Part shown: one piece after another, positions 20,005-21,430 of the stretch
Position numbering within the stretch: the stretch's first letter is position 1
Layout: each line of letters begins with the position of its first letter
Assembly (NCBI RefSeq): GCF_013315695.1
Contig: NZ_CP054353.1
DNA from: Escherichia coli
GTDB taxonomy: Bacteria; Pseudomonadota; Gammaproteobacteria; Enterobacterales; Enterobacteriaceae
Direction: 5' to 3' (one strand)
Length of the DNA stretch: 64,000 nucleotides
Made by a program: the position numbers and the translations under genes
Notes under the pieces: model-generated
Seen by the model: only the letters and a program-made list of their open reading frames with translations
What the model was told of the DNA's origin: nothing
Database searches by the model: none

Positions 20005-21430
20005 TAATGCCGATCAGTTAAGGATCAGTTGACCGATCCAGTGGCTGTGTAAGAATCCGGAAACGCTCACTTGTTTCCGGATTTTTTTATGCACATTGGA
20101 CAGGCTCTTGATCTGGTATCCCGTTACGATTCTCTGCGTAACCCACTGACTTCTCTGGGGGATTACCTCGACCCCGAACTCATCTCTCGTTGCCTTGCCG
20201 AATCAGGTACTGTAACGCTACGCAAGCGCCGTCTTCCCCTCGAAATGATGGTCTGGTGTATTGTTGGCATGGCGCTTGAGCGTAAAGAACCTCTTCACCA
20301 GATTGTGAATCGCCTGGACATCATGCTGCCGGGCAATCGCCCCTTCGTTGCCCCCAGTGCCGTTATTCAGGCCCGCCAGCGCCTGGGAAGTGAGGCTGTC
20401 CGCCGCGTGTTCACGAAAACAGCGCAGCTCTGGCATAACGCCACGCCGCATCCGCACTGGTGCGGCCTGACCCTGCTGGCCATCGATGGTGTGTTCTGGC
20501 GCACACCGGATACACCAGAGAACGATGCAGCCTTCCCCCGCCAGACACATGCCGGGAACCCGGCGCTCTACCCGCAGGTCAAAATGGTCTGCCAGATGGA
20601 ACTGACCAGCCATCTGCTGACGGCTGCAGCCTTCGGCACGATGAAGAACAGCGAAAATGAGCTTGCTGAGCAACTTATAGAACAAACCGGCGATAACACT
20701 CTGACGTTAATGGATAAAGGTTATTACTCACTGGGACTGTTAAATGCCTGGAGCCTGGCGGGAGAACACCGCCACTGGATGATACCTCTCAGAAAGGGAG
20801 CGCAATATGAAGAGATCAGAAAACTGGGTAAAGGCGATCATCTGGTGAAGCTGAAAACCAGCCCGCAGGCACGAAAAAAGTGGCCGGGACTGGGAAATGA
20901 AGTGACAGCCCGCCTGCTGACCGTGACGCGCAAAGGAAAAGTCTGCCATCTGCTGACGTCGATGACGGACGCCATGCGCTTCCCCGGAGGAGAAATGGCG
21001 GATCTGTACAGTCATCGCTGGGAAATCGAACTGGGATACAGGGAGATAAAACAGACGATGCAACTGAGCAGGCTGACGCTGAGAAGTAAAAAACCGGAGC
21101 TTGTGGAGCAAGAGCTGTGGGGTGTCTTACTGGCTTATAATCTGGTGAGATATCAGATGATTAAAATGGCGGAACATCTGAAAGGTTACTGGCCGAATCA
21201 ACTGAGTTTCTCAGAATCATGCGGAATGGTGATGAGAATGCTGATGACATTGCAGGGCGCTTCACCGGGACGTATACCGGAGCTGATGCGCGATCTTGCA
21301 AGTATGGGACAACTTGTGAAATTACCGACAAGAAGGGAAAGGGCCTTCCCGAGAGTGGTAAAGGAGAGGCCCTGGAAATACCCCACAGCCCCGAAAAAGA
21401 GCCAGTCAGTTGCTTAACTGACTGGCATTA
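20005..21430 (+). mobile_element. IS4 copy A (1426 bp), no target-site duplication; sits at a synteny breakpoint
   Basis: Termini TAATGCCGATCAGTTAAGG ... TTAACTGACTGGCATTA; flanks GCCGCCCTTCGGGG and GTCCCCAGGGAG are unrelated. Confidence 0.92.
20071..21417 (+). CDS. IS4 transposase (DDE); probable true start [10 protein letters not shown] at 20089
   Basis: 448 aa ORF identical to the ORF at 29186-30532; matches IS4 transposase. Confidence 0.92.

Follow-up and report, generated by a model that had tools for sequence, protein, structure and literature searches.

An IS4 element between fumA and ydeQ as the probable endpoint of a chromosomal inversion of about 130 kb in an Escherichia coli clone

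The stretch of DNA that we analysed, referred to here as the window, comprises 64,000 nucleotides of Escherichia coli contig NZ_CP054353.1 (assembly GCF_013315695.1) and contains, between the fumarase gene fumA and the fimbrial adhesin gene ydeQ, a complete insertion sequence (IS) of the IS4 type that we call copy A. We conclude, with a probability of roughly 0.92, that copy A is a recombinant IS4 and marks one end of a reciprocal inversion that spans about 130 kb of the chromosome. An earlier reading of the sequence, made without database searches, had proposed recombination between two IS4 copies, most simply an inversion, and had predicted a reciprocal junction that joins the ydeP side through IS4 to the fumC side. 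The parental arrangement is present in sister genomes, and the predicted junction was found in the clonal relatives MSB1_4I and GCA_964052565.1. What that reading had missed is the content of the flipped segment, which includes dif, TerC, TerB and tus.

IS4 insertions are expected to be flanked by a target duplication of 10-13 bp. None was found around copy A; its flanks, CCGCCCTTCGGGG on the left and GTCCCCAGGGAG on the right, are unrelated, which agrees with the sequence-only reading that no repeat of 11-13 bp flanks the element at 20005-21430. That reading had also described the flanks as part of the fumA terminator stem and the interior of a FimH-like gene, and both descriptions hold: CCGCCCTTCGGGG comprises the left arm, the loop and part of the right arm of the fumA terminator hairpin, and GTCCCCAGGGAG lies within ydeQ. 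A second element in the window, copy B, carries a clean 13-bp duplication, as had been claimed (CCCCTTACCGGAG, perfect on both sides), and is an internal control for the appearance of an unrecombined IS4. Copies A and B do not differ at a single base over their full length. Duplications of the expected size also flank the two parental copies in the sister genome AF3 (13 and 12 bp) and a copy located between kup and ravA (12 bp). The missing duplication of copy A therefore reflects an exchange that followed insertion, and not a different type of element.

The parental state is preserved in AF3 (NZ_OZ547117.1), which is 99.97-100% identical to the window. AF3 harbors two ordinary IS4 insertions, each with its own duplication (Table 1), which are inverted relative to each other and separated by 129.3 kb. 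Copy A combines the left flank of the AF3 fumA insertion with the right flank of the AF3 ydeQ insertion. The simple ydeQ insertion with the same 12 bp on both sides is found in AF3 and in several further loci of our comparison (L022-L025, L027-L029, L042 and L046). Strain MS 21-1 represents an earlier stage than AF3: it carries the IS4 insertion between fumA and fumC, and its ydeQ is intact. The fumA-site duplication in MS 21-1 measures 12 bp (CGCCCTTCGGGG) as opposed to 13 bp in AF3 and AR_0137; either an error or loss of 1 bp in the homopolymer or a separate insertion accounts for the difference. The sole sequence variant seen in these elements is a T to G change at IS4 position 21 in the fumA copy of AF3; neither the window nor MSB1_4I has the change, which is either private to AF3 or was erased.

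Among 5,426 complete RefSeq E. coli genomes, the junction of fumA, IS4 and ydeQ occurs in one, the clonal relative MSB1_4I (NZ_LR898874.1). Related genomes in which fumA natively adjoins the fimbrial operon had been named beforehand as an observation that would speak against a rearrangement, and the only complete genome with this order is thus itself a clonal relative. The flanks in MSB1_4I are 99.98% identical to the window, and 5.1 kb across the junction are 100% identical; the two sequences part at the IS2 at 24150-25480, where MSB1_4I has undergone a further inversion. GCA_900448625.1, which was read at the window-side junction, is colinear with the window from 17150 to 39045 (21.9 kb; 99.96% identity, with 3 mismatches and 6 indels), and GCA_964052565.1 and GCA_964044265.1 carry the fumA/IS4/ydeQ junction as well. 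The junction is real and common to a small clade.

The reciprocal junction reads ydeO-safA-ydeP-ydeQ3'-GTCCCCAGGGAG/IS4/CCGCCCTTCGGGG-fumC-tus and is located at 2,542,119-2,543,544 in MSB1_4I and is present in no other complete RefSeq genome; it is also found in the assembly GCA_964052565.1. Each of these two genomes holds both junctions with complementary halves of the duplications (fum/IS4/ydeQ in the window and in loci L003, L026, L030 and L041; ydeQ/IS4/fum in L005/L034 and L033). In MSB1_4I, TerB, which adjoins tus, is inverted relative to ydeP. At the reciprocal junction of GCA_964052565.1 (L033, 1-3500) the sequence from part of pqqL through ydeP is gone, and a further transposase gene (DDE_Tnp_1_5) lies beside the ydeQ-side flank of IS4; this loss is an IS-associated secondary deletion that took place after the inversion.

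These observations are best explained by the following series of events. An ancestor would have gained an IS4 in the fumA terminator, between fumA and fumC, with duplication of the 13 bp CCGCCCTTCGGGG, and a second IS4 would have entered ydeQ in inverted orientation relative to the first, with duplication of the 12 bp GTCCCCAGGGAG. Homologous recombination between the identical 1426-bp copies then probably flipped the intervening segment, ydeQ5'-ydeRST-yneL-dif-lsr-TerC-mar-Qin prophage-ynf-rstAB-TerB/tus-fumC. Each IS4 would have kept its own ends and the flanks attached to them, so that half of each duplication is now found at each copy. What can be read directly from the sequences compared are the hybrid flanks, the parental state, the content of the segment and, in the sister genomes, the reciprocal junction; the exchange itself was probably homologous recombination of the RecA type.

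The orientation of the genes points in the same direction. In K-12 MG1655, the minus strand carries both ydeQ (1,586,820-1,587,734) and fumA (1,686,731-1,688,377), at a distance of about 99 kb from each other, in accordance with the earlier estimate that the ydeQ region lies some 100 kb away in K-12 in opposite orientation. In the window fumA is on the plus and ydeQ on the minus strand, i.e., their relative orientation is reversed. Starting from the K-12 order, with both genes on the minus strand, only an inversion places fumA on the plus strand beside the 5' part of ydeQ on the minus strand. A deletion model was considered and is ruled out by this orientation and by the existence of the reciprocal junctions.

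A broader version of that model, in which the window genome underwent a non-reciprocal event, for example a deletion or duplicative translocation by which fumA and ydeQ were joined without an intact reciprocal junction, would explain why one junction is visible in the window, and the loss of the region from pqqL to ydeP in GCA_964052565.1 illustrates that secondary deletions happen here. However, a simple deletion from either the K-12 or the AF3 order cannot generate the observed orientation of fumA and ydeQ5'; the two sister genomes have retained both junctions with complementary half-duplications; and the IS4 copies enclose 130.6 kb in MSB1_4I and 129.3 kb in AF3 (the 1.3-kb excess equals one IS2 in length). 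We consider such an event extremely improbable. We give about equally little credence to an assembly artefact, i.e., a segment between inverted 1.4-kb repeats that was threaded in either direction so that the junction is a mis-join. The genome has IS4 in about 17-19 places, short reads cannot span 1426 bp, and inversions between long inverted repeats leave no signal in paired-end data (PMC5009759), all of which speak for such an error. Yet at least four further assemblies, produced in different projects (MSB1_4I, GCA_900448625.1, GCA_964052565.1 and GCA_964044265.1), show the same junction with 99.96-100% identity, and in them it lies on single contigs of 5.1-5.3 Mb without Ns. Moreover, uninverted assemblies occur in the same accession range (GCA_9640xxxxx), which argues that the orientation was resolved and not set by default.

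The alternative that most closely mimics the observed outcome is a one-step intramolecular transposition, in which the IS4 of the fumA terminator attacks ydeQ and creates the second copy, the 12-bp duplication and the inversion together, without passing through a ydeQ insertion intermediate. Each IS would be left with an old flank and a copy of the new duplication, and the product would be indistinguishable by sequence from that of recombination. IS4-family transposases are regarded as cut-and-paste enzymes and not as replicative ones, which counts against this explanation. So does the presence, in many assemblies of the same clone, of the uninverted ydeQ intermediate with the same 12-bp duplication on both sides. 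The same ydeQ site also carries a simple IS4 insertion in the unrelated strain MMC-J-0105 (flanks 98.2% identical). Furthermore, a 2.4-kb deletion in the fimbrial operon and an IS1 on the lsrK side are confined to inverted genomes, which suggests that the genomes with the simple ydeQ insertion branch below them. Although an IS1 transposition-mediated inversion of 920 kb in E. coli is an entry in the reference list of PMC1550401, we regard the one-step route as very unlikely, if slightly less so than the two explanations above.

Several points nevertheless weigh against recombination between two IS4 copies as the source of copy A. The reciprocal junction was seen in clonal relatives only. Copy A, copy B and the reciprocal copy are all identical, and for this reason the crossover cannot be mapped and an exchange inside the element cannot be proven. 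One-step transposition with inversion would yield the same final sequence.

The flipped segment contains sites for the termination of replication and for the resolution of dimers. The site at which chromosome dimers are resolved, dif, lies 5.5 kb inside the segment, and its strand relation to TerC is the one found in K-12; TerC is situated 17 kb from dif, also within the segment, and the Qin prophage, TerB and tus are part of the remainder, which was read in sister genomes. With dif inside the segment, the two endpoints lie on opposite replichores, and the leading/lagging polarity of the genes is therefore kept. The GC skew is +0.029 to the left of copy A, +0.016 from copy A to dif and -0.039 beyond dif, and the IS4 junction shows no anomaly. 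The FtsK-orienting polar sequences (KOPS), of which the 64 kb contain four, converge on dif, which is consistent with the model but adds no weight given their small number.

The polarity with which Tus bound at Ter sites arrests replication forks is established, and the way in which the Ter sites are oriented predicts how the fork trap would change. The flipped TerC and TerB should now block forks that arrive from the fumA side and no longer those from the ydeP side, and dif would remain 17 kb from the blocking face of TerC. In the window state there would be no inner barrier for forks from the ydeP side, whose next barrier must be an outer Ter site beyond the window, and clonal relatives would have TerB/TerC traps of 55 kb. 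Using the coordinates of MSB1_4I (oriC at about 5,232,100, dif at 2,583,965), we infer replichore splits of 49.2/50.8% for an AF3-like, 51.4/48.6% for a window-like and 49.8/50.2% for the MSB1_4I arrangement. All three are far below the imbalance of about 10% that has been reported to matter (PMC4173774). In the clone-mate GCA_000460675.1 (KE701927.1, from about 12,096 on), identity to the window ends in the middle of dif (window 26952) and gives way to a filamentous-phage-like block that contains G2P_X_C, Zot and secretin genes, apparently an element integrated at dif.

The mechanism is textbook material, and the inversion described here is a new instance of it; a search for an earlier description of this inversion (IS4 with fumA/fumC; endpoints in the fumA terminator and ydeQ) found none in the searchable literature. 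When inverted IS copies recombine, the intervening segment inverts and one copy is left at each end (PMC5009759). Inversions between IS copies have been described in the E. coli long-term evolution experiment, where they involve many IS types (PMC4173774), and in mutation-accumulation lines (PMC5009759), and in Shigella flexneri 5b an IS4-bounded inversion and re-inversion around oriC was inferred (PMC1550401). The case described here resembles these inversions in E. coli and Shigella in that identical inverted IS copies lie at both ends, target duplications were exchanged, no sequence was gained or lost, and the event is reversible, with nested inversion and re-inversion. It differs from K-12, where IS4 is present as a single copy and nearly inactive (8 of 758 new insertions and 0 recombinations; PMC5009759), whereas here it has expanded to about 17 copies.

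Goodall et al. (2021; PMC8347550) found dif between terA and terC in all non-Shigella E. coli that they analysed. They described inversions spanning terA, terC and dif in EDL933 and from terE to terB in SMS-3-5; in S. flexneri and S. boydii, terC was flipped and dif lay between terC and terB, and arrangements with a flipped terC were limited to Shigella. As in their cases, dif and TerC move as one module in the clone studied here, with dif kept on the side that TerC blocks, and sister genomes in which the second, IS2-bounded segment is inverted reproduce arrangements with dif located between TerC and TerB. The window state departs from these cases in that TerC, TerB and tus are flipped together and TerA is not; both inner barriers of the fumA-side replichore are turned to the opposite polarity, with consequences that we can only predict. 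The clone is a natural E. coli exception to the pattern of dif, terA and terC reported in PMC8347550. Like the inversions symmetric about the terminus or origin that produce X-alignments, this one has its endpoints on opposite replichores and dif in between, and it preserves gene strand bias and GC skew. Unlike those, it is strongly asymmetric, as it extends 5.5 kb from dif in one direction and about 124 kb in the other, and dif is displaced by about 120 kb, although the replichore imbalance would still be only about 1.4%.

For annotation, copy A is best treated as the breakpoint of the probable inversion of about 130 kb and not as an insertion event, and the ydeQ pseudogene and the fumA terminator remnant as dating from earlier insertions. 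For chromosome biology, the isolates can be used as natural exceptions in comparisons by marker-frequency analysis. The case is a clean worked example that leaves the current understanding unchanged and does not reveal a new phenomenon.

The IS2 in ydeT is a simple insertion in the window. In MSB1_4I and several other genomes, this element and an IS2 located in the Qin exonuclease gene have swapped flanks, and about 88 kb that include dif and TerC are inverted; this nested inversion is absent from the window (the IS2 elements span 25851-27167 in L003, from MSB1_4I, and 12001-13331 in L004). The last 14 bp of the right end are missing from the MSB1_4I IS2 that abuts the Qin exonuclease gene (L003, about 27160-27170), so that either the second inversion or the original insertion at this place was not entirely clean. 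All four combinations of the two inversions exist in the clone: neither in AF3 and GCA_964042285.1, the IS2 inversion alone in GCA_964055605.1, the IS4 inversion alone in the window and GCA_900448625.1, and both in MSB1_4I, GCA_964044265.1 and GCA_964052565.1.

To order these events we used two markers that are practically irreversible, the 2.4-kb fimbrial deletion and the IS1 at 32459-33226. The deletion, at 26121-26126 in the window, removed the major subunit, the chaperone and the N-terminus of the usher; its joint has a 6-bp overlap, some clone-mates keep the sequence (loci L040 and L042, at 12927-15343), and AF3 has a different, smaller remnant of the operon. The IS1 is a simple insertion between the autotransporter gene and lsrK with the 9-bp duplication AAAACTCTT and is missing from part of the clone. 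Both IS2 states occur among marker-positive genomes (L041 and the window versus L044, L045 and L047) and among marker-negative ones (L042 and L046 versus L040), which reveals that the IS2 inversion occurred at least twice. The marker-positive genomes of known IS4 state are all inverted at IS4, in line with a single origin of that inversion within a clade structure built on two indel markers. It is conceivable, though on balance we doubt it, that the terminus of this clone behaves as an invertible region with two switches. Should the states have different fitness, or should they interconvert at a measurable rate, the clone would provide a natural test of the importance of fork-trap geometry, and of the idea that dif must stay within the innermost pair of Ter sites.

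The target sites of IS4 are reused. The 13 bp in the fumA terminator are occupied by IS4 in 16 of the 5,426 genomes, in one orientation in 14 and in the other in 2; one of the latter two was read and has the same 13-bp duplication. Across the backgrounds with an occupied fumA site, identity ranges from 98.3 to 100%. The 12-bp ydeQ site is likewise occupied in MMC-J-0105. Such hot spots at exact sites make shared IS4 positions weak evidence of common descent. The four duplications observed are CCGCCCTTCGGGG, GTCCCCAGGGAG, CCCCTTACCGGAG and CTCAAAGGGGGG; the first three follow a loose pattern of a run of Cs, a short spacer and a G-rich part, which CTCAAAGGGGGG fits only as its reverse complement, CCCCCCTTTGAG.

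Table 1. Positions of copy A, its flanks and the other features discussed, in window coordinates unless AF3 is given
Feature	Position	Strand	Remarks
IS4 copy A	20005..21430	+	1426 bp, complete; hybrid copy, probably at one end of the inversion
Left flank of copy A, CCGCCCTTCGGGG	19992..20004	+	One copy of the 13-bp fumA-terminator duplication; also on both sides of IS4 in AF3 and AR_0137
Right flank of copy A, GTCCCCAGGGAG	21431..21442	+	One copy of the 12-bp duplication of the ydeQ insertion, inside ydeQ; also on both sides of IS4 in AF3 and seven further assemblies
IS4 transposase gene	20089..21417	+	Sole open reading frame (ORF) of IS4, 442 aa from ATG; ORF list; start in the Prokaryotic Genome Annotation Pipeline (PGAP) is TTG at 20071
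IS4 copy B	29120..30545	+	Simple insertion in autotransporter gene; perfect 13-bp duplication CCCCTTACCGGAG
fumA	18339..19985	+	Class I fumarase (PGAP label fumB); last gene of the K-12-like rsx-to-fumA block; ORF list, MSB1_4I annotation
Truncated ydeQ	21406..22230	-	FimH-like adhesin; pseudogene in MSB1_4I and AF3 annotation
ydeR, ydeS and 3' fragment of usher gene ydeT	22290..24149	-	IS4 to IS2, short arm of the probable inverted segment; ORF list, MSB1_4I annotation
IS2	24150..25480	+	1331 bp; simple insertion in ydeT; 5-bp duplication AAATG
dif	26938..26965	-	XerCD chromosome-dimer resolution site; exact 28-bp match (0 matches in 100 shuffles)
TerC (ATATAGGATGTTGTAACTAATAT)	43993..44015	+	Tus-binding replication fork barrier; between yneE and uxaB as in K-12
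AF3 fumA terminator insertion	874,690-876,115	+	manA-fumA-CCGCCCTTCGGGG/IS4/CCGCCCTTCGGGG-fumC-tus; 13-bp duplication
AF3 ydeQ insertion	~1,005,426-1,006,851	-	ydeP-ydeQ3'-GTCCCCAGGGAG/IS4/GTCCCCAGGGAG-ydeQ5'-ydeR; 12-bp duplication

Copy A itself belongs to the IS4 subgroup of the IS4 family. The terminal inverted repeats agree with each other at 16 of 18 positions (ends TAATGCCGATCAGTTAAG and TAATGCCAGTCAGTTAAG), and in size and in repeats it fits the IS4 subgroup, for which about 1.4-1.65 kb and terminal inverted repeats starting with -AATR- are given (PMC2266710, Table 1). PGAP names the product "IS4-like element IS4 family transposase", and the gene tables of relatives list precomputed Pfam matches of the identical gene to PF13006 (Nterm_IS4) and PF01609 (DDE_Tnp_1). 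A strong hairpin followed by a run of Ts precedes the transposase gene at about 20046-20088 (predicted folding energy -22.8 kcal/mol). Direct folding revealed this hairpin; a scan of 19900-21600 for consensus terminators did not report it on the plus strand.

It was the original insertions, and not the later recombination, that truncated ydeQ and split the fumA terminator. The reconstructed empty fumA terminator folds with -17.1 kcal/mol, as compared to -6.8 kcal/mol for the remnant. The ydeQ ORF of 274 aa consists of 266 native codons followed by eight IS4 codons and an IS4 stop, and the K-12 gene has 915 nucleotides. The sequence-only reading was thus correct in stating that the adhesin takes its stop codon from IS4, but the loss of its native 3' end, which that reading had associated with the rearrangement, dates from the original insertion and preceded the inversion.

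To the left of copy A the window has the order rsx...uidA-uidB-IS1-uidC-ydgA-manA-fumA, and to its right ydeQ'-ydeR-ydeS-ydeT'-IS2-ydeT'-yneL-dif-autotransporter-IS4-IS1-lsr...mar. The IS1 at 13839-14606 has no 9-bp duplication (its flanks end in ggcgtgcg and begin with ttcgtgat) and lies between a uidB truncated at its 3' end and a uidC truncated at its 5' end, and these features together mark an IS1-associated deletion. Upstream of it, uidA is annotated as frameshifted in the near-identical MSB1_4I. The hipBA genes, which in K-12 lie between dif and the yneO autotransporter pseudogene, are absent at window 26966-27150, and the autotransporter gene, interrupted by copy B, follows dif at a distance of about 190 bp. 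Further to the right, lsrK (33454-35045) is split into two ORFs (284 and 260 aa), and the annotation of MSB1_4I lists it as frameshifted.

A P2-like prophage adjoining rcdA in AF3 (89,700-123,300) includes a reverse transcriptase/endonuclease gene that the annotation assigns to the retron Ec67 family. On a larger scale, the whole lineage carries a far bigger inversion relative to K-12, roughly K-12 0.914-2.229 Mb and nearly symmetric about dif. One of its endpoints was seen, a junction of lysO and yohP across an IS110-family element (AF3, about 152,600-154,600), and the orientation of dnaA relative to ydeP in MSB1_4I agrees with this larger inversion.

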